Of a stretch of 64,000 nucleotides of DNA, positions 5,030-62,118 are shown in pieces. Made by a program: the position numbers and the translations under genes. Within the stretch, counting starts at the first letter, position 1. Every line of letters begins with the position of its first letter. The notes beneath the pieces were generated by a model, which saw nothing but the letters and a program-made list of their open reading frames with translations, ran no database searches and was not told where the DNA came from. The stretch is from Patescibacteria group bacterium (lineage in GTDB: Bacteria; Patescibacteriota; Microgenomatia; UBA12405): NCBI GenBank assembly GCA_018902845.1, contig JAHIPV010000009.1, forward strand, positions 8,950 through 72,949, given 5' to 3'.

Positions 5030-6936
5030 TTTTTCTTAAAAATTAAAACTTTGGGGTGGTCGTAGACGGTGAAGGCTTCTTCGGATGTGTCGTCGCGGAT
5101 GTAAATACCGGGGTATAGGCATTGGCTATCAATAGTAAACCATTTATTTGTTTTTTCTTTGTAAGGAAAATTGGTGGGGCCGAAATAATAACATTTTTTT
5201 AAAAATGGCAGGTTTATCCCTGGGTAAGAATTAATTTCTATTAATTTTGTAAAACTTAATTTTTCATCAAAGAGGTTTTGGTAAAATTTTGATGTTTGGG
5301 GATATTTGTTTGGTACTGGCGGGATGGAACCCCAAAGACGATTTGATGACATGATCATATAATCGGCATTATTTATAATTGGACTTAATCTTTGCCATTT
5401 TTCTGGTGTGTCTGGATCGTAAAGCGATAGCATTTGACCACTGTAACTGCTGGCAGTTTGTTTTGGTAAGTTTAATGGAAGAGGATCGTCCCAATATTCA
5501 TTTGTAATTAAGGATTCAATGGGAATATTTTTGTAAATCCAGTTTGATGCCTGAACGCGGGAATGAGGGCGGGAATAGATAGATAGAAAAGAAATGCAAA
5601 ATATAAAATGGAAAATAAAAGTAGTAAAAATGAATTTTAAATTAGAGGTTGGCTTGATAGCGAGCAAACATATAAATGGGTAGATTGGTAAAAAATAACG
5701 CATAGTAGTGACAAATTGAGAGCCCTGAAAAAAGAAAAGAAGGATAATCCAAGCCAACAAGAGAAAAACAATAGGATTGTGATTTTTTAAGATTTTGAGT
5801 TTTGTTCCAAAATCAGTGGTTATAAGATTCCTCGACTTCGCTCGGAATGACACGATTGTTTTGAGAGTGAAACTGATAATTTTAAAAAGTGAAATGAAAA
5901 ATAGGATTGATAGAGGTAAACCAATGCCCCAGAAAACAAGATTTTTTAGGGGGAAAAGAATGGGAGTTTTACTTAGCCATTGAACGGCTGGTGGAAACCA
6001 AGCATCTGGATCATTAAACGACTGAAGTGTTTTTAAATTGTCAATAAACTGAGGGTTGGGTTTGATAAGGGAAACAAAAGCGTATGGCTGAACAAGACGA
6101 AAAACAAGAAAAGTAGTTAGCAAAAAGTAAGATCCGAGAAAAATTAACTTGATTAAACGAATGATATTAAAAAAGTTTTTGGTTTTAAAAAAATAAAACA
6201 AAAAGAATAAAGCAATAACTGGAGAAAAAAGAAGAGCAGAAATTTTAGATGCCATGGCAAGACCAAAAAAAATTGGCGAGAGAAGTAAACTCCAGCTCTG
6301 CTGGAGACCTCGAACAAGTCGAGAGATCCCTCGACTACGCTCGGGATGACAGTTTCTTTTTGTTAGCCAGTGAGATAATAGTGTAAAAGTGGCGAAAATA
6401 AAGAAGTTTAAGAAAGTGTCAACGGCAAAAAAATGAGAGAGCTGAATTGGAAAAATACAGGTTGCGTAGAAAAGGCTGGGAAGAAAATATAATAACGGCC
6501 AGGTGTTTTTTGACTTGGGTGAGGTTTTGTTGCGACTGTATAATGGTTGTTTCTTGAAAATTAACTTTGAAATAAGATACAAGGAAAAAATGTTTAGGGA
6601 ATCAAAAAAAGCTGAAAGTGCGCGACCCAGAAAGTGAATTTTACCGTAAGAATCGAGATTTAGTATGGTGGCTAAATATTTTGTCAAAAAAATAGGAAAG
6701 GTGCCATAAACAAAAAACTGATATTCTTTATAGTTGTATGGATTTAGCGGAGAGATATTAGTATTTAGGTATTGTGTAAAGGAAATCGGAAGTTTTATTC
6801 TTTCGGTTACCATGGTCAAAAATCTTTCGTCTGGGTGGAGATGCTGATCGTTGTCCCAATTAATACCGTAAAGACGAAGAGACAAGGCAAAGAGGAAGAT
6901 AAGGATTAAAATTATTTTGTTTTTATGATTTTTCAT
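5026..6936 (-). CDS. GT-C fold membrane glycosyltransferase (PMT/ArnT-like) with two in-frame repeat insertions
   Basis: 636 aa, polytopic, with an HPDERF loop motif after TM1. Repeat-derived segments are HPERSRGISRLVRGLQ (6309-6352) and SFRAKSRN (5827-5854). Confidence 0.55.
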   Translation of the reverse strand: MKNHKNKIILILIFLFALSLRLYGINWDNDQHLHPDERFLTMVTERIKLPISFTQYLNTNISPLNPYNYKEYQFFVYGTFPIFLTKYLATILNLDSYGKIHFLGRALSAFFDSLNIFSLYLISKLIFKKQPLYSRNKTSPKSKNTWPLLYFLPSLFYATCIFPIQLSHFFAVDTFLNFFIFATFTLLSHWLTKRNCHPERSRGISRLVRGLQQSWSLLLSPIFFGLAMASKISALLFSPVIALFFLFYFFKTKNFFNIIRLIKLIFLGSYFLLTTFLVFRLVQPYAFVSLIKPNPQFIDNLKTLQSFNDPDAWFPPAVQWLSKTPILFPLKNLVFWGIGLPLSILFFISLFKIISFTLKTIVSFRAKSRNLITTDFGTKLKILKNHNPIVFLLLAWIILLFFFQGSQFVTTMRYFLPIYPFICLLAIKPTSNLKFIFTTFIFHFIFCISFLSIYSRPHSRVQASNWIYKNIPIESLITNEYWDDPLPLNLPKQTASSYSGQMLSLYDPDTPEKWQRLSPIINNADYMIMSSNRLWGSIPPVPNKYPQTSKFYQNLFDEKLSFTKLIEINSYPGINLPFLKKCYYFGPTNFPYKEKTNKWFTIDSQCLYPGIYIRDDTSEEAFTVYDHPKVLIFKKK

Positions 6937-21011: not shown

Positions 21012-21170
21012 TTTGTCATTCCGACTCCTTCGACTCCGCTCAGGATAAATTCCATGGAGGAATCTCTGAACTTGTTTCAGAAATCCCGCTGTGGCGGGAT
21101 ACCTCAGACAAGCTGAGAGATCCCTCGACTTCGCTCGGGATGACAAGTGCTTCGCTGGCAATGACAAACA
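21012..21170. repeat. Dense composite repeat cluster (~160 bp). A near-identical ~115-bp copy is at 44463-44578.
   Basis: The string TTTGTCATTCCGAC...TTTCAGAAATCCCGC..GGCGGGATACCTCAGACAAGCTGAGAGATCC is shared between the two loci. Confidence 0.85.
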
Positions 21171-32584: not shown

Positions 32585-33835
32585 TTGGACATTGATATGA
32601 CTAAAAAATCCGATGAGTTTTTAAATTTTGCCGATATTTTAAACAACAAAGAAACTGATGAATTGTTAAGAAAAATTAAGCTTGGTCGCAAAGATGATTC
32701 TGCTAGTAAGAAAAAAATAAAAATTAAAGATTTATGCAGAATGAGGGATTATAGATTACAGGCGCTGGTGAATTGGGTTAAGTTGTTTGGTAAAAAGGGG
32801 TATTGGGATTATAAGTGGTTGCTGAGATATGGATGGGAATGGATAAGACCAAAGTGGATAAACAAAAATGGTAGAGAAATTTCTTGGCGATTGATATTGT
32901 TTCCAAATTCAGAGGTCAGGAGATTCCTCCACTTCGGTCGGAATGACAAGATTAATAAATTTTCTCGGATTTTTGATTTAAGGGATATTGGGAGGGTTAG
33001 GAAAGAAGTACTAAAATTGGGTAAATTTGATCCTCTGTGGTTTGCCAGAATTTTTGAGCCAGAAACTAAGGGAATCAGAGCTTGGGAATATGGAATGTTG
33101 TTAAATTATTTCAAAAAGAAAAACAAAAAGATATTAGATATCGGTAGTGGCGGAAGTTTACTGCCTGATTTTTTGGCTAGTAGCGGGGCGAAGGTGACCA
33201 GTATTGATATTGAGAAACCAATGGAAAAAAGACCCGTCTTTGCCAAAGGCTACGACGAGGCAAAGGAAAAAAAACTGGCGAAGGTGGAGTTTGTGGTTGG
33301 GGATATGACGAAATTACCATTTAAAAAAAATAGTTTTGATGCAGTAATTTGCATTTCGGCTATCGAACATTTGGACACAAAAATGGAAGGTGGTTTTTAT
33401 TCCAAAAAAGAATATTGGAATAGGACAATAAGAGCATTGAGAGAAATGGCGAGAGTGACTAAAAAAAATGGGTTGTTTTATTTGACAACTGATTTTTATT
33501 TAAAAAGACAGAAGACGGACAATTGGAGTGATTTAAATAAATTGATGAATAAAGATGATTTTGATTACGACGGGATCCTTCTCCGCCAACTGGCGGATCA
33601 GGATGACGGTGTGAAAAGACAGGGTGACGGTGTGAAAAGACAGGGTGACGGTGTGAAAATTAGAGGGGCGTATGAGTGGAAGAGATTAAAAATGTTTTTG
33701 AGTGAATTAAATAAAGCAGAGTTAAAAATTAAGACAGATGTTGATAAATATAAAAAATTATTAATGAAAGATAAAAATAGATCGAATTATAGAGGCAGGT
33801 ATTTTACTACCGTAGCTTTTGTTGGCCTAGGATGA
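32585..33835 (+). CDS. Class I SAM-dependent methyltransferase with in-frame repeat insertions
   Basis: ILDIGSGGSLLPDFLA motif I and a VVGDMTKLPF..FDAVICISAIEHL segment. Inserted segments are EVRRFLHFGRNDK (32912-32950) and DGILLRQLADQDDGVKRQGDGVKRQGDGVK (33568-33668). Confidence 0.65.
   Translation: MDIDMTKKSDEFLNFADILNNKETDELLRKIKLGRKDDSASKKKIKIKDLCRMRDYRLQALVNWVKLFGKKGYWDYKWLLRYGWEWIRPKWINKNGREISWRLILFPNSEVRRFLHFGRNDKINKFSRIFDLRDIGRVRKEVLKLGKFDPLWFARIFEPETKGIRAWEYGMLLNYFKKKNKKILDIGSGGSLLPDFLASSGAKVTSIDIEKPMEKRPVFAKGYDEAKEKKLAKVEFVVGDMTKLPFKKNSFDAVICISAIEHLDTKMEGGFYSKKEYWNRTIRALREMARVTKKNGLFYLTTDFYLKRQKTDNWSDLNKLMNKDDFDYDGILLRQLADQDDGVKRQGDGVKRQGDGVKIRGAYEWKRLKMFLSELNKAELKIKTDVDKYKKLLMKDKNRSNYRGRYFTTVAFVGLG
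32912..32950. repeat. 39-bp repeat element, in frame in the methyltransferase (same element as 53611-53650)
   Basis: GAGGTCAGGAGATTCCTCCACTTCGGTCGGAATGACAAG against GAGGTCAGGAGATCCCTCGACTTCGCTCGGGATGACAAG. Confidence 0.85.
33606..33668. repeat. Three 21-bp tandem repeats (GACGGTGTGAAAAGACAGGGT), in frame
   Basis: Read directly from the sequence. Encodes three DGVKRQG heptads. Confidence 0.85.
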
Positions 33836-37990: not shown

Positions 37991-39540
37991 GGTGAATAGT
38001 TGACTGAAAAATCATAAAGAATGGGGGTGTTTTGGCCATCAATACTTTTTAAAAATGCCTTATATCTAAAATAGCGACCAATATTGGCACCTAAATAAAT
38101 CCCCTGCCCCTCTGAATCAGTATAAAGATCGTCGGAAAGATCAGTGCCGGCAGGACCATGATAAAGCCATGGACCATCTGCGTTTTCAGAGATAGCCGTT
38201 TGGAAACCGATCAAGGTATTTGGAAATGTTTGGCCAGAAAAACTGATTCTATTAAAAGCAGAAGATTGATTGGTATCCAAAACTGAAGAAATTAAGGTGC
38301 CTTCTGTAAAAAATCCTCCAACCCCGCCGGTTAAATCCATGGCATCAACATAAAAAATAAGAGTTGGGTCTGAATGATCCATTATTTTGGAAAAATATAT
38401 GGCTTCTAAATTATTTTCATAATCTTCCCCTATTTGTTCGTAATCTAAGCTGATTTCTGTCCAAGTTACAGGGGGTATAGTGATAGTCCTCTCGTCCCAT
38501 TGGCCATAAACAGCCGTAACATCTATTTCAATTTCATCTGGAGTGGGATTATAGGCATAAAAATGAAGATTGCGAAAACCGATGGTACAGATCTCATCAT
38601 AATTAAAAATTTTTACCCACGATCGCCATGAACCGGAACTGGGGGAATAAAGTTGGATTTTCATGGAATAACTTGATTCATTGTAAGTAAAATCGGCGGA
38701 GTTGGTGGATATAACACCATTAGAAAAAAATGTTAAAAATTTACACAAAAGCCATTCCCAAAAACCAAGTCCGCTACAATTGGTGCGCCAACCGTTTTGT
38801 AATTGGTCATCATAGATAAGAGATTCAGGTGAACCTCCCTGGCAACCTCCAAGAAGTTCTATTTCCCCGTTATTTATTGTGGGATCAGTGATTTTTACCA
38901 GATCCATTTGACCACCTTCGAAATCGGAAACCGTGCTTTGCTGCCAGGATAAATTATCGTAATAGCGAGTTAAATATTTACTTTGGGTAATTTGACTCGG
39001 ATGTAAACCTGTCCACGAACAGGTGGCTGCTATTTTTTTTGTTGACAAATCAAGGGTTCCGGAAGAATCAACAATGTCACCATTTTGATTGCGATAAACA
39101 GGACTAATGTCTATATAACGGGTAAAATTATCGACAAGCTCCCCGCTGGTAGTAGAGACAAGAGATAAAATTCCACCATCTTCATTAATAATGTAACGAC
39201 CGTTATTTAACAAATTCCAGTCAGCGTGTTGAATATTTTTTGTTTTTTCTAAATATTCAAGATTTAGAGCCGTGGCTTTGGTTTTTTCTTTACCAATCTC
39301 GGCAGTTTCTTGAGAGACAAAAAATAGTCTGGTGACGGCAAAAATAATTGTTGATAAAACTCCTATACATACAAGTATTTCTACTATTGAAAAAGCAAAT
39401 TGCTTGTCATTGCGAGGTAGTCTTTTAGTTCGTTTCAGAAATCCGCCTTTGGCGGATACTTCGCATTCGCGAGAGATCCCTCGACTTCGCTCGGGATGAC
39501 AGAATGGTTTGCTCGGGATGACACTAGTTTTATTTTTCAT
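37987..39540 (-). CDS. Large pilin-like protein whose leader region is encoded by repeat elements
   Basis: FAFSIVEILVCIGVL is a prepilin-like helix. The preceding ~45 aa (HPERSRGISRECEVSAKGGF...) are a translation of repeat modules at 39406-39525. Confidence 0.5.
   Translation of the reverse strand: MKNKTSVIPSKPFCHPERSRGISRECEVSAKGGFLKRTKRLPRNDKQFAFSIVEILVCIGVLSTIIFAVTRLFFVSQETAEIGKEKTKATALNLEYLEKTKNIQHADWNLLNNGRYIINEDGGILSLVSTTSGELVDNFTRYIDISPVYRNQNGDIVDSSGTLDLSTKKIAATCSWTGLHPSQITQSKYLTRYYDNLSWQQSTVSDFEGGQMDLVKITDPTINNGEIELLGGCQGGSPESLIYDDQLQNGWRTNCSGLGFWEWLLCKFLTFFSNGVISTNSADFTYNESSYSMKIQLYSPSSGSWRSWVKIFNYDEICTIGFRNLHFYAYNPTPDEIEIDVTAVYGQWDERTITIPPVTWTEISLDYEQIGEDYENNLEAIYFSKIMDHSDPTLIFYVDAMDLTGGVGGFFTEGTLISSVLDTNQSSAFNRISFSGQTFPNTLIGFQTAISENADGPWLYHGPAGTDLSDDLYTDSEGQGIYLGANIGRYFRYKAFLKSIDGQNTPILYDFSVNYSP
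39406..39525. repeat. Composite GC-rich repeat block inside the 5-prime end of a pilin-like gene
   Basis: Contains GTCATTGCGAGG, AAATCCGCCTTTGGCGGAT and GAGATCCCTCGACTTCGCTCGGGATGACAG modules. Confidence 0.85.
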
Positions 39541-45111: not shown

Positions 45112-45177
45112 AAAATCCGCCCTTGGCGGATATCTCGCATTCGCGAGAGATCCCTCCGCTACGGTCGGGATGACAAT
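45112..45177. repeat. GC-rich repeat block
   Basis: AAATCCGCCCTTGGCGGAT plus GAGATCCCTCCGCTACGGTCGGGATGACA. Confidence 0.8.
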
Positions 45178-45179
45178 AA

Positions 45180-53178: not shown

Positions 53179-53215
53179 ATGATAATAGTATAGTTGAATT
53201 CTGCAAAGCAGAATA

Positions 53216-53260
53216 TCTCGAACAAGTCGAGAGATCCCTCCGCTTCGGTCGGGATGACAA
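53216..53260. repeat. GC-rich repeat module in the divergent promoter region of the AmmeMemoRadiSam genes
   Basis: CTCGAACAAGTCGAGAGATCCCTCCGCTTCGGTCGGGATGACAAT; compare 6309-6352. Confidence 0.85.
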
Positions 53261-53280
53261 TAATATCTGTATTAAAAAAA

Positions 53281-54330
53281 ATGAAAAAAGCAAAGACATT
53301 GTACAAAAAATTAGATAAGAATACGGTGCAGTGCAGGGCTTGCAATTGGTATTGCAAGATTAAAGAAGGAAATGTGGGGATATGTGGAGTAAGGCAAAAC
53401 AATAGTGGAGAGTTGTGTTTGTTGGTGGATGGAAAAATAATTAGCTTAGCGGTAGATCCGATTGAAAAAAAGCCTTTGTTTCATTTTTTGCCGGCAAGTA
53501 AAACTTTATCTTTTGGAACTTTGGGGTGTAATTTTGGTTGCGCTTTTTGCCAGAATTGGCAACAATCGCAAGGAATAAAGGGGAAATTATGGTTGCTTTT
53601 AAATTATTCAGAGGTCAGGAGATCCCTCGACTTCGCTCGGGATGACAAGACTCCTAAAGAGATTGTAGAAAAAGCCGAGAAATTGGGGTGTGAGTCAATT
53701 GCTTATACCTACAACGAGCCAACGATTTTTGTTGAATATGCTTATGAAACGATGAAGCTGGCAAAAAAGGCGGGTATAAAAAATGTATGGGTGTCTAATG
53801 GATTCATGTCAGATGAGAGTTTTGAGCTAATAAAAGATTTGATTGACGGCATTAATATTGATTTAAAAAGTATAAATAGTGACTTTTATAGAAAAATTTG
53901 TAAAGGAAAATTAGAACCGGTTTTGAAAAATATTAAGAAATTTTATAAGGCTGGAATTTGGATAGAGTTGACTACTATGATAATTGCCGGCGAAAACGAC
54001 TCCCCTGCTGAGTTAAAAAAAATTGCTGAGTTTATTGCTAATCTTTCTTGCGACATTCCTTGGCACGTAACCGCTTTTCATCCTGATTATAAAATGATGG
54101 ACAAAGAAGCTACTAGCTTGGAAAAATTGGAAGAGGCATGGCAAATTGGTAAAAAATCTGGCTTAAAGTATATTTATACCGGCAATGTTTGGGGTGGAAA
54201 AAATTCAACATATTGTGTGGAATGTGGAAATTTGCTAATAGATAGGGGGGATTATGGATCAGGAAAAGTTTTGGGGTTGGCAGATGGAAAATGTGAAGAG
54301 TGTGGCCAGAAAATTAGTGGAGCGTGGTAG
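53281..54330 (+). CDS. AmmeMemoRadiSam system radical SAM enzyme, with an in-frame repeat insertion. The ATG at 53281 is preferred over the TTG at 53194.
   Basis: GTLGCNFGCAFCQNW is a radical-SAM Cys motif. The segment EVRRSLDFARDDK is encoded by the repeat at 53611-53650. The upstream extension from 53194 only reads through a repeat. Confidence 0.75.
   Translation: MKKAKTLYKKLDKNTVQCRACNWYCKIKEGNVGICGVRQNNSGELCLLVDGKIISLAVDPIEKKPLFHFLPASKTLSFGTLGCNFGCAFCQNWQQSQGIKGKLWLLLNYSEVRRSLDFARDDKTPKEIVEKAEKLGCESIAYTYNEPTIFVEYAYETMKLAKKAGIKNVWVSNGFMSDESFELIKDLIDGINIDLKSINSDFYRKICKGKLEPVLKNIKKFYKAGIWIELTTMIIAGENDSPAELKKIAEFIANLSCDIPWHVTAFHPDYKMMDKEATSLEKLEEAWQIGKKSGLKYIYTGNVWGGKNSTYCVECGNLLIDRGDYGSGKVLGLADGKCEECGQKISGAW
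53611..53650. repeat. 39-bp repeat element, in frame in the radical SAM gene
   Basis: See 32912-32950. Confidence 0.85.
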
Positions 54331-54742
54331 AAAGTAATTTTTCTAATTTGTTTATACAAGATTGGGTGTTGATAAAAAGAATGGTGGTTATGCCAAGTTC
54401 TTGGGCTGAGTCAATGTTTCGAGTTATGTCATCAACAAAAATACATTGATCTGGACTAAGATTGAGCTTGTTTAGGGCTAGTTGAAAAATTTTGTGATTT
54501 GGTTTAAAAAGACCGGTTTCTTGGGAGATAAAAATTTGATCAAAAAGATCATCTAGGGAAAAATTTGAAAGTCGTTTGAATTTTTGCCTAATGGTGGATG
54601 AAGTGTTTGATATGACAACGGTTTTTACACTGGCCTTCTTTAGTTTTTTTATTGTTTGTATTAATTCTAAATTAGGACGGGAATTTGGCAAAATCAAAAC
54701 ATTGCTAATATCAAAAATAACGGCCTTGTAGTCTGTTTTCAT
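54314..54742 (-). CDS. HAD-superfamily hydrolase (small)
   Basis: AVIFDISNVLI motif I-like start and VDD near the C-terminus; 142 aa. Confidence 0.5.
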   Translation of the reverse strand: MKTDYKAVIFDISNVLILPNSRPNLELIQTIKKLKKASVKTVVISNTSSTIRQKFKRLSNFSLDDLFDQIFISQETGLFKPNHKIFQLALNKLNLSPDQCIFVDDITRNIDSAQELGITTILFINTQSCINKLEKLLSTTLH

Positions 54743-54744
54743 TA

Positions 54745-55086
54745 AAAAATTAAAAATACTTTGACAAAACGATCCAGAAAAGAATTATAAAAATATAGGC
54801 TATTAGCCAGATGGTAGTGCTGATAACCAGTTTTATGGCTTTGACAGTCTGCTTTTTTTTCCAAAAAAGAATGAATGGATAGCCTAAGGTTAACAGGGCT
54901 GAAATTAAAGCGGAGACGACAAAAAGAATAAGAAATAGAAGCGGGCCAAGAAAATTTGGTGCTTTGCCAAAAAGGTTGTTTCCGTATAAAAAAAGAAGAC
55001 CGATTAAAGAACAGTAGGCAAATAGTCCAGTAGCTTGTAAAAAAGCAATGAGATTTAAAGACAGTTTCTTTTTGTTTCTGATAAGT
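54745..55086 (-). pseudogene. Polytopic membrane protein ORF (~113 codons) with no in-frame ATG/GTG start. Possible pseudogene or fragment.
   Basis: The open frame LIRNKKKLSLNLIAFLQATGLF...IILFWIVLSKYF contains no Met. It lies between the HAD gene and the left boundary of the insertion cassette. Confidence 0.25.
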
Positions 55087-55132
55087 TATGATAACAAATA
55101 TTGAGCTGAAAGGCTGTTTTATAGGAAAAAGG

Positions 55133-55190
55133 AATAACGCTTCGCTAGATCCTTCGTCCGATCAATCGGACTCAGGATGACAAATAGGGG
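55133..55190. repeat. GC-rich repeat block abutting the left direct repeat of the cassette
   Basis: GCTTCGCTAGATCCTTCGTCCGATCAATCGGACTCAGGATGACA. Confidence 0.8.
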
Positions 55191-55193
55191 TTG

Positions 55194-55220
55194 TTCGTAA
55201 CGGAGGGCGTCGATGGGATT
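55194..55220. repeat. Left 27-bp direct repeat (TTCGTAACGGAGGGCGTCGATGGGATT), copy of the FtsX permease 3-prime end
   Basis: Identical to 57982-58008. The reverse complement encodes NPIDALRYE but lacks the stop codon. Confidence 0.9.
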
Positions 55221-55235
55221 ACTCTGATTTTAAGC

Positions 55236-55526
55236 TTAAAATTGTACTGAAGCCTTACCCTGTACAAACTGGCGAATTAAAGCATTTAACAATGTTTGAT
55301 ATGGAACATTGTTTCTTTTCGCTTTTGCCTTTACTTTGATTAAGTCTCCTTGATTAACACGGATTGTTATTCTTTTTGATTTTTGCAATTCTTCGTAATT
55401 TTTGACTGCTTCTTTAAAAAGATTTTTAGCATGACTTAGATTAGAAGTACTGACAAATTCTTCTCTTTGTAAGGCTTTTTCGATTCTTTTTTCTTGTTTG
55501 TCTAATTTTGGATTAATTTTTTTCAT
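55236..55526 (-). CDS. BrnA-like antitoxin (CopG/RHH-like)
   Basis: C-terminal ITIRVNQGDLIKVKAKAKRNNVPYQTLLNALIRQ resembles BrnA; compare DVPYQSLLKIFL in 61840-62118. Confidence 0.5.
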   Translation of the reverse strand: MKKINPKLDKQEKRIEKALQREEFVSTSNLSHAKNLFKEAVKNYEELQKSKRITIRVNQGDLIKVKAKAKRNNVPYQTLLNALIRQFVQGKASVQF

Positions 55527-55531
55527 GATTT

Positions 55532-55816
55532 TTATTTCCTTTTTAAATATTTATTTGTTAATACTCTACTCGGATAAACTGTCTTTAAGAAAATTGTTTT
55601 TTTTCTTTTATCGATTACATAAGGTACAGCATAAATATAATTTTTAATCTTAATTATTAATATTCTTTGTTTTGGATACTTTTTTTTATTTTTGTGTTTT
55701 AAGTTATCGAGAATTTTATTATTCTTAATGGCGTTAATTACTTGATCAAAACCAACGCCTCGAGTTTGTTGAAGTAATAAATTTTTTTCTTCACTAAACT
55801 CTATACTTAAATTCAC
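55532..55816 (-). CDS. BrnT-like toxin (DUF497-like), GTG start
   Basis: IEFSEEKNLLLQQTRGVGFDQV resembles the BrnT N-terminal FEWDxxKxxxNxxKHGVxFEE. Gene order is toxin first, then antitoxin. Confidence 0.45.
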   Translation of the reverse strand: MNLSIEFSEEKNLLLQQTRGVGFDQVINAIKNNKILDNLKHKNKKKYPKQRILIIKIKNYIYAVPYVIDKRKKTIFLKTVYPSRVLTNKYLKRK

Positions 55817-55823
55817 TGTTTAT

Positions 55824-55852
55824 ATTTTAGCATTGTGTACATCCGTTGTCAA
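55824..55852 (-). promoter_or_regulatory. Candidate promoter TTGACA-17-TAAAAT (minus strand) for the BrnT-like gene, with a TGTGTACA palindrome in the spacer
   Basis: Read directly from the sequence. Confidence 0.4.
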
Positions 55853-55921
55853 TACGTTAAATAAATTAAAAAGAGAAGTTGAAAAAACTAAAGTTTTTTT
55901 TTAGTTGAGTTAAAATAGGTT

Positions 55922-56746
55922 ATGTTAATGGACGTTAAAGAAGGATTGAAAAACTTAAAAGAACAAGAGAGACAGATACCTGAAATTGAAAGAAAAGCAG
56001 TGGTAGGTTTAGTTAGAGAAATGACTATGCCCTTGAACCTAAGAGATGGTCTTTTTGATACAGCCGTAACGAGATTTACAGACGTGTGTGACCATTTGAG
56101 AGTTGTTTTTGTTTTTCCTGTTCCTGGTGAAGTGCCGGACTTAACGATAGTTGAAGATGATGGGTTATCAAAAATTGTAGTGGAAGAACATAAAATAGCA
56201 AAATCCCAAGTGGAAACAAACAATCTTTTTGGGCCTAAGGTTGATGAAGTAATAACGTTAATTAAGATTAGAGATGATTTATCATTAGCTGAACTTGGGA
56301 AATTGATAAAAACTATTAGAGAACTAAGCAAGTCTCCTTTGTGGAGTGGAAAAGATCAACAGCAGGCTGATGAATGGCAGGAGGGAGTTAGAGAGTATAG
56401 CTCAAACTTGAGATGGGCCGGATTGGCCATGATGGAGGTACAAAAACAAGCAAATGGAAAACAAGCAAAAGAAACGAGCGATTTTGACGATTTTTATCGT
56501 AAATCAGTTGAGATTGTTTTTAAATTAGGCCAAGCTATTGATTTAGATCGAAGGAACGGTTCAGTCCCGACCTTGGATGAAGCTTGTGAAGAATTAAAGA
56601 GAAATAAAACGGATGAATATGGAGAAGCATTGCAACAGGGTTTGCAATATGCCAGATATGCGGGTAAATCAAAAAGACAATTAGAGTTTGCTGATATGGC
56701 TAGGCTTTATCAGAGAGTAAAGAAGAATAAAAGAATTGCCTGTTGA
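55922..56746 (+). CDS. Hypothetical protein (cassette gene 1)
   Basis: 274 aa, acidic, no TM and no recognisable motif. Overlaps the next gene by 11 nt. Confidence 0.4.
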   Translation: MLMDVKEGLKNLKEQERQIPEIERKAVVGLVREMTMPLNLRDGLFDTAVTRFTDVCDHLRVVFVFPVPGEVPDLTIVEDDGLSKIVVEEHKIAKSQVETNNLFGPKVDEVITLIKIRDDLSLAELGKLIKTIRELSKSPLWSGKDQQQADEWQEGVREYSSNLRWAGLAMMEVQKQANGKQAKETSDFDDFYRKSVEIVFKLGQAIDLDRRNGSVPTLDEACEELKRNKTDEYGEALQQGLQYARYAGKSKRQLEFADMARLYQRVKKNKRIAC

Positions 56747-57401
56747 TTTTGCAGAAGCTGTGGTTTTGCGAGGAATAGAACAGATGTATCAAGAGTTGCC
56801 AGTACCAAAATGGGTTAAGGCTTTAATAAGGGCTGATTTAGAAGATGAAAATCAACTAAAACAAATTACTCAAGCAATTGATCAGGAACTTGGATCAGGA
56901 GTGGTTGGACAAATAATTCACGAGTTTTTGAGTTATGAAAAGTATCAACGGTATTGTTTTGATGAAAATGAGAAAAAAAAAGAAGACGTAAAATTAATGG
57001 AGTTACTAATAAAAAATGAAAGTAAAAAAGATATCAAGGCGTTGTTAATTAGATATCAAGACCACTTACAAAGCCTGGGATTAGGTAAAGATAATATTGT
57101 CCGGTTTAGCGACTGGCTAGAAGACCCTGAGTTTTTTGATAAAGAGAAGAAAGCCAAATTATTAAGAGAGTCGAGTAAAAAGTTTGGATGGGAAAAAGAT
57201 AAGAATGTTAGAAACCTCGATGATGTGAATGGTTATTATCAAAATCTCTTAAAAACAGCGGATGAAGAAGAAATAAGAGAGTTATTAAAGGAACAAACTC
57301 GCTTTCAAAAAACCATGATGATTATGATTGTTGATGAAATGAGAATTAATTATGGTGGCTGGGAAGGACTTTGTTGTTGGCTAGGTCTGCTATGGCATTA
57401 G
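56736..57401 (+). CDS. Hypothetical protein (cassette gene 2)
   Basis: 221 aa with no recognisable motif. Overlaps the next gene by 31 nt. Confidence 0.4.
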   Translation: MPVDFAEAVVLRGIEQMYQELPVPKWVKALIRADLEDENQLKQITQAIDQELGSGVVGQIIHEFLSYEKYQRYCFDENEKKKEDVKLMELLIKNESKKDIKALLIRYQDHLQSLGLGKDNIVRFSDWLEDPEFFDKEKKAKLLRESSKKFGWEKDKNVRNLDDVNGYYQNLLKTADEEEIRELLKEQTRFQKTMMIMIVDEMRINYGGWEGLCCWLGLLWH

Positions 57402-57988
57402 GGATAAATCTTGAAAAAATTAGTGGTGCTGATACTTTTGGTCACACGACGCTATCTGTTAAATGGGCTGATGGTGATGAAAATGTTGTGGAGGCAAGTG
57501 CTTATAAAGGAAGTGAGCTGGTTGATATAAAAGAAGTTGCAGATCCAAATGGACTACTGCAAAAAGGAGAAAGAGTCGTAAAAAGATTGAGTGGTAAAAG
57601 ATATCTTTTGGTTGATATTCGAAAATATCTTGCTTCTCGTGTTTTAGTAAATTTACAAATTTGCTTGGATACGAATTCTTTGTTGAAAAAATTTCAGCAA
57701 GAAATTTTTTTCAACTCAGCTGATATAAATAATTGGTTCGCCGATAGACACAGTCAGGGACATAAAACTATGGCGAGTATTACCAGAGCTACTGGTAAAA
57801 AGAAAGATGAAATCGATCGGATGCTTGATAGATTAACGTTTTTGTGTCCAAATTATTATAGAGCCAGTGGAGAAGGAGATGAATTATCTGGAGAGTATTC
57901 TGATTACCCTGATTTCCAGAAAATGATGAGAAGGTTGTTTAAAGAAAGAAGTGAGGAGAAAGGAGAAAAGAATAGGTTTTATTCGTAA
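57371..57988 (+). CDS. Hypothetical protein (cassette gene 3)
   Basis: 205 aa with no recognisable motif. Its stop codon lies inside the right direct repeat. Confidence 0.4.
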   Translation: MLLARSAMALGINLEKISGADTFGHTTLSVKWADGDENVVEASAYKGSELVDIKEVADPNGLLQKGERVVKRLSGKRYLLVDIRKYLASRVLVNLQICLDTNSLLKKFQQEIFFNSADINNWFADRHSQGHKTMASITRATGKKKDEIDRMLDRLTFLCPNYYRASGEGDELSGEYSDYPDFQKMMRRLFKERSEEKGEKNRFYS

Positions 57989-59166
57989 CGGAGGGCGTCG
58001 ATGGGATTTAGCTCTGAAGCTTTTTTGGCTGGATACCAGCCAAAAAGCAGACCGACGGCGGCCGATACACCGACAGCCAAAAGAATTGATTTTAGACTAA
58101 CTATAAAATGTATACCCATAGCGGTAGAAGCAAAATATGTCAAAACCGCTCCGATTATGACTCCAAATATTCCTCCAAACAAAGTTAAAACCAGCGATTC
58201 GATTAAGAATTGAGATAAAATATCTTTTCTTTTGGCTCCGATGGCCTTAAGAAGGCCAATGTCTTTGGTCCTTTCTGTGACAGTAACCAGCATTATATTC
58301 ATAATTCCGATTCCTCCGACCAAGAGCGATATGGCGGCAATTCCGGATAATACGGTGGTCAAAACTCCGGTAACACTACTCATTGATTCAATCATTTGCT
58401 GAGGACTTCTAAGATCAAAGTCTGCATTATCAGGATCACTTATTTCATGTCTTTCCAGAAGTAAGTTTTCAATATTTGTTAAAGTTTGCTCCATTATTTG
58501 GTTGTCAATTACTCTGACGGAAATACTACTGTAGTAATCGTGTCCAAATAATATTTTTTGAGCTGTAGATATGGGTATTATGACACTGGAGCTGTCTTTG
58601 ATAACTCCTACAATTTTGAAAGTCTTGCCGTCAATTCTGATTTTTTGGCCAACTACCATAGCTCCTTGGCCAAATAAATCTTCAACAAGCTCATCGCCCA
58701 GTACTACACTTCTGGTCATACTATATATACTACTTTGATTCAAAAAATCGCCCTGAGAAAACTCTAATGATTGAATTTGAGCATAGTCGTATTCGACTCC
58801 ATTTATGGAAGAAGAGGTGGAATTTTCTTCAAAAACTAGATTTTTTTGACCACTGACTATTCCACTGACCGCTTCTATGTTTGGCAATTCTAAAATAGCC
58901 GTAGTATCTTCTTTTACCAATGTATCAAAGGTTCCGCCTGTCATGCCCGGTCCCCTTCTGGCTCTACCCGGAGATACGGTTATGACATTGGTTCCAAAAG
59001 TAGAAATTTGATCAACAATTGACTGAGTGGAACCTTCTCCCAGGGACATAATGGTAATGACAGATCCAATGCCGATAACAATTCCCAACATTGTCAGCAT
59101 GGTTCGGGCAAGGTTGCTTTTGAGTTCGGTTAAAGCCAATATTATTAATTCTTTTATATCAATCAT
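57979..59166 (-). CDS. ABC transporter permease (MacB/FtsX family)
   Basis: N-terminal TM, a large periplasmic domain and a C-terminal FtsX-like 3-TM bundle; 395 aa. Confidence 0.8.
   Translation of the reverse strand: MIDIKELIILALTELKSNLARTMLTMLGIVIGIGSVITIMSLGEGSTQSIVDQISTFGTNVITVSPGRARRGPGMTGGTFDTLVKEDTTAILELPNIEAVSGIVSGQKNLVFEENSTSSSINGVEYDYAQIQSLEFSQGDFLNQSSIYSMTRSVVLGDELVEDLFGQGAMVVGQKIRIDGKTFKIVGVIKDSSSVIIPISTAQKILFGHDYYSSISVRVIDNQIMEQTLTNIENLLLERHEISDPDNADFDLRSPQQMIESMSSVTGVLTTVLSGIAAISLLVGGIGIMNIMLVTVTERTKDIGLLKAIGAKRKDILSQFLIESLVLTLFGGIFGVIIGAVLTYFASTAMGIHFIVSLKSILLAVGVSAAVGLLFGWYPAKKASELNPIDALRYE
57982..58008. repeat. Right 27-bp direct repeat, the native 3-prime end of the FtsX permease gene
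   Basis: The reverse complement encodes PIDALRYE followed by a stop. Confidence 0.9.
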
Positions 59167-59887
59167 GTGTAATAAAACTGGCGGTTTTTAATTTATAATC
59201 ACGGCTCTCGACTAGTCCGTCTGTAATTTTTATTATTCTTTTGGCAAAGGCAGCAATGTCATCTTCGTGTGTAATTACAACAACAGTACTGCCTTTTTTG
59301 TTTAATTGAACAAGAAATTTCATAACTTCATGAGCCGTCTTTGTATCTAAATTACCTGTTGGCTCATCGGCCAAGATTATGGATGGATTCATGGTTAAGG
59401 CTCTGGCTATAGCTACTCTTTGTATTTGTCCTCCTGATATATGATTGGATAAATTGGAAGCCTTGTCTGCTAGACCTACAATTTTTAGCACTTCCATAGC
59501 TCTTTTTTTTCTTTTTTCTTCCGGGTATCCGGCATAAAGCATGGGCCTTTCTACATTTTTTAATACTGTAGTTCTGGGCAGGAGGTTATAAGATTGAAAA
59601 ATGAAACCTATTTGTTTGTTTCTAATTTCAGCTAATTCGTCAGGGTTATAATGAGAAATATTTTTTCCATTTAAAAAGTATTTTCCTGAAGTTGGAGAAT
59701 CAAGAGCTCCCATCAAATTCATAATGGTTGATTTGCCCGAGCCTGAGTGTCCGATGATAGCCACAAATTCCCCTTTGTTGATTTTTATATCTATTCCTTT
59801 TAATGCCTGATATTTAACTGGTCCGGTTATATAAGTTTTTGTTATTTGTTCAAACTTAATGATTGGATTGTTTTTGTTTTTTTTCAT
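59159..59887 (-). CDS. ABC transporter ATP-binding protein (MacB/LolD-like)
   Basis: Walker A GHSGSGKST, signature ISGGQIQR, Walker B ILADEPTGNLD. Confidence 0.85.
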   Translation of the reverse strand: MKKNKNNPIIKFEQITKTYITGPVKYQALKGIDIKINKGEFVAIIGHSGSGKSTIMNLMGALDSPTSGKYFLNGKNISHYNPDELAEIRNKQIGFIFQSYNLLPRTTVLKNVERPMLYAGYPEEKRKKRAMEVLKIVGLADKASNLSNHISGGQIQRVAIARALTMNPSIILADEPTGNLDTKTAHEVMKFLVQLNKKGSTVVVITHEDDIAAFAKRIIKITDGLVESRDYKLKTASFITHD

Positions 59888-61522: not shown

Positions 61523-61560
61523 TTGACAACACTTGTTTTGTATATTATGATAATATACAA
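61523..61560 (+). promoter_or_regulatory. brnTA promoter TTGACA-17-TATGAT with an overlapping 8-bp inverted repeat operator (TTGTATAT-N7-ATATACAA)
   Basis: Read directly from the sequence. The palindrome spans the -10 element and reaches the start codon. Confidence 0.55.
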
Positions 61561-61853
61561 TGGATTTGTTAAGTAAACTAGAAGGTTTCGACTGGAACAG
61601 AGGAAATGTTAAAAAAAATTGGATAAAACATAAAGTAAATGCAAAAGAAGCTGAAGAAGTTTTTTTTAATAAACCATTGCTTGTTAATTTTGATCAAGAA
61701 CATTCGAAAAAAGAAAAAAGATTTCGAGTGCTTGGCAGAACCAATAAGAAAAGAAGATTATTTATTTCTTTTACTTTAAGAAAGAAAAAAATTAGAATTA
61801 TTTCTGCTCGAGATATGAGCAAGAAAGAAAGGATAAATTATGAAAAAGTTTAA
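61560..61853 (+). CDS. brnT: BrnT toxin (DUF497)
   Basis: FDWNRGNVKKNWIKHKVNAKEAEEVF and IRIISARDMSKKER are the hallmark BrnT motifs. Confidence 0.75.
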   Translation: MDLLSKLEGFDWNRGNVKKNWIKHKVNAKEAEEVFFNKPLLVNFDQEHSKKEKRFRVLGRTNKKRRLFISFTLRKKKIRIISARDMSKKERINYEKV

Positions 61854-62118
61854 AAAGATACCAAAATTTAAAAATGAGAATGAAGAAAGAGAGTTTTGGG
61901 CGACTCATGATTCTACTGAATATGTTGACTGGAGTAAGGCTGTTAAAAATCCGGTTTTCCCCAATCTCAAGCCTTCTACTGAAACTATTTCTTTGAGACT
62001 GCCAAAATATTTATTAGCAAGGCTCAAAGAATTGGCCAATTCTAAAGATGTTCCCTATCAATCATTGTTGAAAATATTTTTGTCTGAAAGAATAGATAAA
62101 GAAATCCAGACGGCCTGA
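61840..62118 (+). CDS. brnA: BrnA antitoxin
   Basis: ISLRLPKYLLARLKELANSKDVPYQSLLKIFL is a BrnA-type RHH C-terminus. Overlaps brnT by 14 nt. Confidence 0.7.
   Translation: MKKFKKIPKFKNENEEREFWATHDSTEYVDWSKAVKNPVFPNLKPSTETISLRLPKYLLARLKELANSKDVPYQSLLKIFLSERIDKEIQTA

Follow-up and report, generated by a model that had tools for sequence, protein, structure and literature searches.

In frameshifted bacterial pseudogenes, adjacent open reading frames (ORFs) that lie in different frames jointly cover one ancestral gene, homology to intact relatives crosses the nominal starts of the pieces, and constraint on the sequence is relaxed. We find the same pattern in the genome of a Patescibacteria group bacterium, in three ORFs of a 64,000-nt stretch of contig JAHIPV010000009.1 (hereafter, the window). 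Their distant relatives form an unnamed family of ~700-aa proteins, each encoded by one uninterrupted ORF, that are homologous to the window copy in colinear order over the whole length. By comparison with this family, the coding sequence of the window copy runs through three frames and lacks blocks of ~34 aa and 25 aa. The three ORFs are most likely the remnant of one gene of ~700 residues that was recently fragmented by two deletions and is now a pseudogene, probably inactive. Their layout is as follows.

55922–56746, forward strand: ORF1, 274 aa, ATG start, frame 2
56736–57401, forward strand: ORF2, 221 aa, TTG start, frame 0
57371–57988, forward strand: ORF3, 205 aa, TTG start, frame 2

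A preliminary description of this DNA had given the ORFs these same coordinates and sizes, with overlaps of 11 nt (ORF1/ORF2) and 31 nt (ORF2/ORF3) and no transmembrane segments. All of this is present exactly so, including the lack of predicted transmembrane segments in the three ORFs. The gene callers of the public records start ORF3 at the ATG at 57392 instead, which yields a protein of 198 aa and an ORF2/ORF3 overlap of 10 nt. Open runs of such length do not arise by chance, as the longest spans 274 codons and the maximum reached in 2000 shuffles of the region was just 134 codons (mean, 62). The slight elevation in GC ascribed earlier to the ORFs was not borne out: their GC content (0.354) equals the window mean (0.354) and falls at the 45th percentile among windows of the same size, and the sole unusual part of the surrounding cassette is an adjacent putative toxin-antitoxin pair (0.255). 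Searched singly against Pfam, NCBIfam, PHROG and PADLOC, the ORFs matched no family. Candidate identities as PC4, WhiA HTH, GrxB and Cas11 that surfaced in these collections were rejected as sub-threshold noise.

The ORFs sit in a 2.8-kb cassette bounded by a 38-nt direct repeat, whose two copies are 92% identical and share an exact 27-mer (55194–55220 and 57982–58008) for which 0 matches would be expected by chance. The cassette and its borders comprise the following features.

55148–55183: hairpin repeat element (computed fold) adjoining the left repeat copy
55183–55220: left repeat copy, with the orphan last 9 codons of macB (NPIDALRYE) plus 11 nt and the stop changed to CAA
55236–55526, reverse strand: CopG/BrnA-type antitoxin gene, 96 aa (CopG_antitoxin PF12441, 29.7 bits against a cut-off of 28, E 1.1e-6)
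55532–55816, reverse strand: toxin-like gene (DUF4258/BrnT-like/RelE-fold nuclease-like), 94 aa (PHROG 38250, E 4.9e-8)
57971–58008: right repeat copy, the true macB 3' end and also the last residues and stop of ORF3
57979–59166, reverse strand: MacB/FtsX-type ABC permease gene, macB (Pfam MacB_PCD E 2.2e-42, FtsX E 1.2e-23)

The right repeat copy holds the macB stop codon (57979–57981, reverse strand) and also, as had been noted before, the end of ORF3 (TAA, 57986–57988); macB converges on ORF3 and overlaps it by 10 nt. The antitoxin gene also matched BrnA_antitoxin (E 9.7e-5) in Pfam. The toxin-like gene, 5 nt away on the same strand, scored below the Pfam cut-offs for DUF4258 (19.4 against 25 bits, E 0.0014) and BrnT_toxin (12.8 against 34.5 bits, E 0.15). 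Searches of Pfam, NCBIfam, PHROG and PADLOC identified no recombinase/integrase, excisionase or transfer gene among the five ORFs of the cassette. No empty site was found among the relatives recovered; the cassette is present in every recovered contig that spans macB to the HAD gene. Matches to the 27-mer in unrelated metagenome-assembled genomes of Fibrobacteres and Nitrospirota were considered as empty sites and rejected as macB 3' ends, the coincidence reflecting codon-level agreement in the conserved NPIDALRYE* C-terminus. One contig (L028) was considered as carrying a different junction 5' of the HAD gene and was also rejected, as it is colinear with the window and merely ends there.

An exhaustive phmmer search with ORF3 of 1.84 billion representative proteins returned four matches in all. 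A sister strain of the same organism supplied one of them, a protein of 198 aa with 93% identity to ORF3. The remaining matches are longer proteins, to whose C-termini ORF3 aligns.

P0004: 750 aa, JGI 3300014914, intact single-ORF homolog
P0005: 694 aa, Logan SRR21686407, intact single-ORF homolog
P0006: 716 aa, ENA metagenomes, intact single-ORF homolog

The family, unnamed and represented by four clusters among 1.84 billion representatives, is very rare. Two MAFFT alignments match ORF1 to the N-terminal part of the three intact proteins, ORF2 to the middle and ORF3 to the C-terminal part, at 32–36% identity over more than 600 columns. Further, P0005 searched against the window with tblastn produced three ordered alignments, in frames 2, 0 and 2, that cover its residues 28–671 with a sum E of 7e-84. 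ORF1 matches the N-terminal ~230–280 residues of the family, where long helices follow an alpha/beta region, and in its frame residues 28–229 of P0005 align to 56081–56731, residues 1–262 of P0006 to 55928–56734 and residues 27–278 of P0004 to 55973–56725. ORF2 is the helical middle, with residues 264–473 of P0005 aligning to 56724–57362 at 39% identity. ORF3 is the C-terminal part, in which His25 (within GHTTLSVKW) and Glu41 are kept, the conserved Cys is gone and a helical tail follows. The window and the family share the motifs DVCDHL, GDEITVIK and LGxAIxLDR, then LRGxExxYQxLPIP, LGLGKxNIxxFSxWLEDPxFF and MRxNYGGW, all three within ORF2, and further GR...LG, H, D/E and RLxxLxPD.

The genes for P0004, P0005 and P0006 stand alone in unrelated neighbourhoods and not beside macB or toxin-antitoxin genes. 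The idea that the trio might recur next to toxin-antitoxin, Abi or RM genes is thus not supported by its intact homologs, which have no such neighbours and offer nothing in favour of a defence trio. In a word-index search of 5.8 billion proteins, ORF1 and ORF2 each matched itself alone, and the single other copy of ORF3 as a separate gene is that of the sister strain, its distant homologs being fused. A tblastn search with the fused protein gave no match in phage and plasmid collections; no related locus was present in the viral contigs scanned, and the metagenome contigs yielded just the P0004 contig again.

The homology changes frame at two places.

56721–56746, forward strand: junction 1, where homology passes from frame 2 to frame 0
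57350–57401, forward strand: junction 2, where homology leaves frame 0 and resumes in frame 2 at nt 57359–57362

At junction 1, the tblastn alignments abut at 56724–56731 and ~34 aa of the intact homologs (P0005 230–263; alignment gap columns ~302–345), a linker of variable length in the family, are missing. The homology in frame 0 (RIKELPVDF against QIKKIPEAM) starts 5' of the nominal TTG of ORF2 at 56736, and the missing block fits an out-of-frame deletion. At junction 2, residue 473 of P0005 ends at 57362 and residue 499 begins at 57359, so that the last G of the TGG codon of NYGGW is shared with the GGA of the GRT motif. The 25 aa missing between these two motifs (P0005 474–498; alignment gap columns 575–602) form the block F..LqDtSPS.I..R.qL.C, which includes a conserved Cys; its absence fits a deletion of 3n+1 nt. 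The core of the block, DTSPS..I..R..L.C, is conserved in all three intact homologs immediately before the invariant GR; it is the most conserved motif of the family and is absent from every frame of the window. By parsimony, the three intact homologs suggest that both blocks were deleted in the lineage of the window. Hence the earlier suggestion of an ancestral single gene broken by frameshifts holds as far as the one gene is concerned, but the breaks appear to be deletions of ~100 nt and ~75 nt rather than 1-nt shifts.

The second block bears on what the gene may once have encoded. The C-terminal domain of the family probably adopts a transglutaminase/arylamine-N-acetyltransferase (NAT) fold (papain-like, Cys-His-Asp). 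The intact homologs share a conserved Cys-His-Asp pattern, which in P0005 consists of C498, H524 and D540; in P0004, the third residue is Glu. The conserved Cys is presumably the nucleophile. The ORFs had been described as having no obvious catalytic motif, which is correct for the ORFs as they stand but not for their intact homologs, in which Cys...His...Asp/Glu is conserved. Pfam provided no match to Transglut_core, Acetyltransf_2 or any other curated profile for the ORFs, the fused reconstructions or the intact homologs. Likewise, neither a PDB sequence search with the fused reconstructions nor a family-profile search returned a transglutaminase or other match, and Foldseek found no match in BFVD. 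A fused ORF2C-ORF3 construct was modelled by single-sequence AF2 with a pLDDT of 34, too low for the model to be of use. As the presumed nucleophile has been deleted, the ancestral enzymatic activity should be gone even if the pieces are translated.

These results are consistent with the following course of events. The ancestral gene would have encoded a soluble protein of ~700 residues that began with an alpha/beta region, continued through a long helical middle and ended in a transglutaminase/NAT-like domain. Two internal deletions (~100 nt and ~75 nt), neither a multiple of three, would have shifted the frame from 2 to 0 and back to 2 in this Patescibacteria lineage. With the second, the conserved Cys would have been lost in a block of 25 residues, together with the motif that precedes it. 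Downstream, the old frames would still be free of new stops, hence the three abutting ORFs with short overlaps. The fragments are presumably without function. The length of the fragments and the barely decayed conserved positions point to a very recent event: the window copy keeps 83 of the 109 positions common to the three intact homologs (76%), a share that falls inside the 64–81% seen for the intact proteins.

The break is evolutionarily recent and fixed in the population. The same three-ORF split, free of stop codons, is found in the sister strain (L017). Between the two strains, ORF3 accumulated 16 nonsynonymous and 9 synonymous changes (omega 0.42) and the adjacent MacB 3 nonsynonymous and 13 synonymous changes (omega 0.064). 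ORF3 is under relaxed constraint relative to MacB (Fisher p = 0.009 on the substitution counts). The omega of ORF3 is nominally below 1 (one-sided p = 0.043), and some residual function of the pieces is therefore possible. That none of the three fragments has been closed by a stop codon in either strain runs counter to a pseudogene. The 41 SNPs are clustered and look like an imported recombination tract, whose divergence may be older than the gene break.

We consider it unlikely that the locus is a true three-gene operon, that is, an ancestral gene split through coupled or overlapping starts into cooperating subunits, perhaps Cys-less and linked to the toxin-antitoxin pair. The unbroken frames in both strains, the 76% of conserved positions kept and the nominally low omega of ORF3 all agree with such an operon, but ORF3 remains far less constrained than the adjacent MacB, by the same Fisher test. 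The position of junction 1, within the variable linker of the family, also speaks for an operon; junction 2, by contrast, interrupts the predicted catalytic domain instead of separating two domains, and the most conserved motif, with the Cys, is deleted there. The stop/start overlaps (11 and 31 nt) have the geometry of coupled genes, yet are equally expected after a frameshift, and homology extends 5' of both nominal starts, as expected of a shifted frame and not of an evolved start. Motifs resembling Shine-Dalgarno (SD) sequences precede possible internal starts (GAGGA before the ATG at 56784 and GGAAGGA before the TTG codons at 57371–57377). They carry little weight for or against, since the majority of genes in this genome are without SD motifs (median duplex energy, +0.4 kcal/mol). 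Outside the sister strain, the pieces occur as separate genes in no other genome searched. The preliminary description had put three translationally coupled genes first and had also reckoned that homologs that are always fused would make the locus a pseudogene; with every distant homolog (P0004, P0005 and P0006) encoded by a single ORF, the former reading loses its support and the latter gains it.

A bolder proposal is that the intact family represents a new, very rare class of Cys-His-Asp (transglutaminase/NAT-like) enzymes, possibly effectors, and that the fragments persist beside the toxin-antitoxin pair as an expressed, Cys-less split pseudoenzyme. Such a live pseudoenzyme would explain the open frames and the conserved positions that were kept, but we regard the proposal as quite unlikely. 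Programmed ribosomal frameshifting, with a +1 shift at 56736–56746 followed by a -1 shift at 57371–57401, would join the frames (2, 0, 2) across their short overlaps, and the two compensating shifts would produce one polypeptide of ~689 aa. Reading through 56721–56746 and 57350–57401, however, we identified neither an X XXY YYZ heptamer nor a prfB-like CUU UGA. The frame changes coincide with the missing 34 and 25 residues, the fused product would still be without the Cys motif, and the intact homologs need no such shifts. We know of no gene in which programmed shifts occur in both directions and deem this explanation highly improbable. The chance that a sequencing or assembly artefact conceals one intact gene is negligible. 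A-rich runs often give rise to indel errors, and junction 1 contains such a run (AATAAAAGAA), but the breaks are losses of ~75–100 nt and not 1-nt errors, and they recur in the diverged sister strain. The ORF sequence is shared without change by at least 13 independent assemblies of this genome; over the region 54314–59166, at least 10 independently assembled contigs, obtained from different samples and with different pipelines (NCBI, ENA, Logan and JGI), are 100% identical, and two others differ at one position.

One gene disrupted by two deletions is, then, the reading that we retain, and it has practical consequences for annotation. The entries now listed as 'hypothetical proteins' (e.g., KKC08_05295 and KKC08_05300) are best combined into a single record that marks the gene as disrupted; the ORFs should neither add three to the tally of orphan genes nor be put forward as a new defence trio. 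The function of this rare family could be studied with the intact homologs. Nothing in this outcome would surprise a specialist; the cassette, presumably mobile, illustrates on a small scale insertion and decay within the reduced genome of a member of the Patescibacteria.

Like integrase-less, att-flanked elements (CIME-like relics), the cassette is bounded by repeats that duplicate the 3' end of its target; macB keeps an intact end, and the block carries the low-GC putative toxin-antitoxin pair. It differs from such relics in having no integrase, excisionase or transfer gene. By fold, the putative relatives of the intact family include NATs (7qi3, 4dmo and 1gx3), TglA (9crn), LapG (4fgo), SseI (4g29) and protein-glutaminase (2zk9). 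Compared with this transglutaminase/NAT superfamily, the domain of the family, predicted with no more than moderate model confidence, forms part of a far larger, helical protein, and the window copy is without the Cys. Finally, the locus departs from the usual frameshifted pseudogene in that its fragments are unusually long for 35% GC (205–274 codons) and their conserved positions have barely decayed.

The three overlapping open reading frames on the + strand (ORF1, ORF2 and ORF3) are real, and sequence comparisons identify them as pieces of a single gene, which two out-of-frame deletions have apparently split among three frames. The gene belongs to a very rare and uncharacterised family of ~700-aa proteins. 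One of these deletions takes out a cysteine that is probably catalytic, in a putative transglutaminase/NAT-like domain. The evidence points to an ordinary pseudogene of recent origin within a small insertion cassette. The coordinates of the three ORFs and their 11- and 31-nt overlaps were reproduced:

55922-56746, + strand: ORF1, 274 aa, ATG start, frame 2
56736-57401, + strand: ORF2, 221 aa, TTG start, frame 0
57371-57988, + strand: ORF3, 205 aa, TTG start, frame 2

The longest open run in the region is 274 codons, and the open runs are not expected by chance at 35% GC because the maximum in shuffled sequences (n = 2000) was only 134 (mean, 62). The GC and AT skews of the + strand are both strongly positive, which fits coding sequence. 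Searches against Pfam, NCBIfam, PHROGs and PADLOC gave zero family matches for any of the ORFs and, as the preliminary description held, none has a transmembrane segment. The GC elevation also claimed there is absent: the GC content of the ORFs (0.354) is exactly the window mean, and the sole unusual value is that of the adjacent toxin-antitoxin pair (0.255).

Word-index searches of 5.8 billion proteins with ORF1 and ORF2 matched the query proteins alone. An exhaustive phmmer search of 1.84 billion representative proteins with ORF3 as query returned four matches:

P0003: 198 aa, from a sister strain, 93% identical to ORF3
P0004: 750 aa, C-terminus matches ORF3 (ORF3 5-197 vs P0004 549-740, E 1.1e-15)
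P0005: 694 aa, C-terminus matches ORF3
P0006: 716 aa, C-terminus matches ORF3

The three ORFs are colinear along the long proteins P0004, P0005 and P0006, with 32-36% identity across >600 columns of the MAFFT alignments (A1 and A2). A tblastn search of the window with P0005 produced three ordered alignments (sum E 7e-84):

P0005 28-229: window 56081-56731, ORF1 frame
P0005 264-473: window 56724-57362, ORF2 frame
P0005 499-671: window 57359-57862, ORF3 frame

Because ORF1-ORF3 cover in order proteins that are a single fused ORF in all three distant homologs, their reading as three translationally coupled genes is wrong. The other possibility raised at the time, a single ancestral gene that was broken, is right, the breaks being two out-of-frame deletions. 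Nor do TA, Abi or RM genes accompany the intact homologs, whose neighbourhoods are unrelated, and searches of phage, plasmid and viral-contig collections brought up no relatives of the broken gene. On the contig carrying P0004 (L020), a small HTH_17/MerR (excisionase-like) gene at 6356-6631 follows the P0004 gene and precedes ruvB; this neighbour might signal a mobile context for that copy.

Twelve or more contigs of independent assembly (NCBI, ENA, Logan, JGI) carry the locus, among them, by exact look-up, JAHIMY010000014.1 of GCA_018895715.1. Across 54314-59166, ten contigs show 100% identity with the window, and two more differ at a single position. This identity across independent assemblies rules out assembly error as the source of the frame breaks, which are therefore real. 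In the window DNA the tblastn alignments abut, but nothing there matches P0005 residues 230-263 and 474-498. Hence, each frame change falls on a missing block, of ~34 aa at the ORF1/ORF2 boundary (junction 1, 56721-56746) and of 25 aa at the ORF2/ORF3 boundary (junction 2, 57350-57401). As all three homologs retain these blocks although their mutual identity is just 30-35%, the parsimonious reading is that the window lineage lost them by deletion. The block missing at junction 1 is a linker of varying length among homologs, and homology in the ORF2 frame (RIKELPVDF vs QIKKIPEAM) begins upstream of the nominal TTG start. At junction 2, the lost block is the family's most conserved motif, F..LqDtSPS.I..R.qL.C, whose final Cys directly precedes an invariant GR. 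The final G of TGG (conserved NYGGW) here doubles as a G of GGA (conserved GRT), as would be expected from a deletion of 3n+1 nt.

The sister strain (L017, GCA_018817965.1) shares all three ORFs and both junctions, so the deletions are older than the split between the two and fixed. The only differences in ORF1 are three successive substitutions (GAA to AGG, 56733-56735) at junction 1, just upstream of the ORF2 TTG. Across 54959-59427, the strains differ at 45 positions, 41 of them inside 57520-58153, a tract of ~630 nt that spans ORF3 and the 3' end of macB; elsewhere in the 4.5 kb compared, the two are nearly identical. The tract resembles a segment acquired by recombination from a more distant relative in which ORF3 likewise lay beside macB. 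Within it, nonsynonymous and synonymous changes number 16 and 9 in ORF3 (omega 0.42; one-sided p = 0.043 vs neutrality) and 3 and 13 in MacB (omega 0.064), a difference with Fisher p = 0.009. The window copy retains 76% of the positions shared by the three intact homologs, whose own range is 64-81%. Taken together, the shared split, the ORF3/MacB contrast and this retention point to recent inactivation and relaxed constraint.

Conceivably, the fragments are still produced and have some role. SD-like motifs are present upstream of possible internal starts but carry no information, given that such motifs are missing from most genes of this genome; in the window, most genes have no Shine-Dalgarno motif and the median anti-SD duplex energy is +0.4 kcal/mol (53 genes). 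Programmed frameshifting is unlikely to join the three frames, as no slippery site was spotted on reading the sequence, two shifts of opposite sign would be required and the product would still be without the conserved blocks.

The broken gene lies inside a 2.8-kb block between 38-nt direct repeats (27 nt exact):

55183-55220: left direct repeat, orphan copy, stop codon now CAA, adjoins a hairpin repeat element
55236-55526: CopG/BrnA-type antitoxin gene (Pfam score above cut-off)
55532-55816: small DUF4258/BrnT-like toxin gene (PHROG E 4.9e-8)
57971-58008: right direct repeat, true macB 3' end
57979-59166, - strand: MacB/FtsX permease gene, last nine codons NPIDALRYE

The right repeat also provides the end of ORF3, which terminates inside it as first described. 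No recombinase gene is among the genes of the block, and no empty site was seen, the block being present in all recovered contigs that span the locus. It resembles the remnant, devoid of an integrase, of an insertion at the 3' end of macB. The exact 27-nt sequence also terminates macB in unrelated Fibrobacteres and Nitrospirota MAGs (L015 511-537 and L016 7054-7080), a match attributable to codon-level identity of the conserved NPIDALRYE-stop C-terminus. The - strand also has an open frame (~54744-55085) that lies between the left repeat and the HAD gene; its product would be small and very hydrophobic (...LIGLLFLYGNNLFGKAPNFLGPLLFLILFVVSALISALLTLGYPFILFW...). This frame lacks an ATG, GTG or TTG near its 5' end, goes uncalled on full contigs and may be a gene that lost its 5' part to the cassette insertion.

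A second toxin-antitoxin pair (~61560-62118, + strand; canonical BrnT toxin and CopG antitoxin) lies on the far side of the macA-ABC-macB operon, placing the efflux operon between two toxin-antitoxin modules that are not close paralogs. A dispersed hairpin-type repeat of ~35 nt (consensus like GATCCCTCCGCTTCGGTCGGGATGACAA) occurs at 53226-53260, 53614-53648 and 55148-55183, with more copies near 2775-2801, 5813-5855, 6309-6351, 21099-21147, 32907-32959, 39473-39501 and 45130-45179. Two copies are in frame within a radical-SAM ORF (53194-54330), translated as ..RDPSASVGMT.. and ..RRSLDFARDDKT.., and the length that gene callers give this gene varies between strains (349 vs 296 aa).

What is mildly new here is confined to the definition of the rare ~700-aa family and its tentative fold assignment. 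Sequence-profile searches gave no identification for the family. An AF2 model of P0005, built on a four-sequence alignment, has a mean pLDDT of 57, rising to 70-89 in blocks of its C-terminal half. Past the Cys, the model predicts a helix and then beta-strands with an invariant His (H524) and, 16 positions beyond, an acidic residue (Asp in P0005, D540, and in P0006; Glu in P0004 and the window). The His and the Glu both survive in the window, as H25 and E41 of ORF3. A Foldseek search of the PDB with the model returned no significant match; the highest-probability match, itself not significant, was the NAT-like amide synthase GdmF. Also listed were eight arylamine N-acetyltransferases, the transglutaminase-like TglA, a TGase, SseI, LapG, three protein-glutaminases and PeiW. 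Because these are all Cys-His-Asp enzymes of the papain/transglutaminase fold, our moderately confident inference is that the family's C-terminal domain is a divergent member of this fold, with the Cys lost from the window as its nucleophile.
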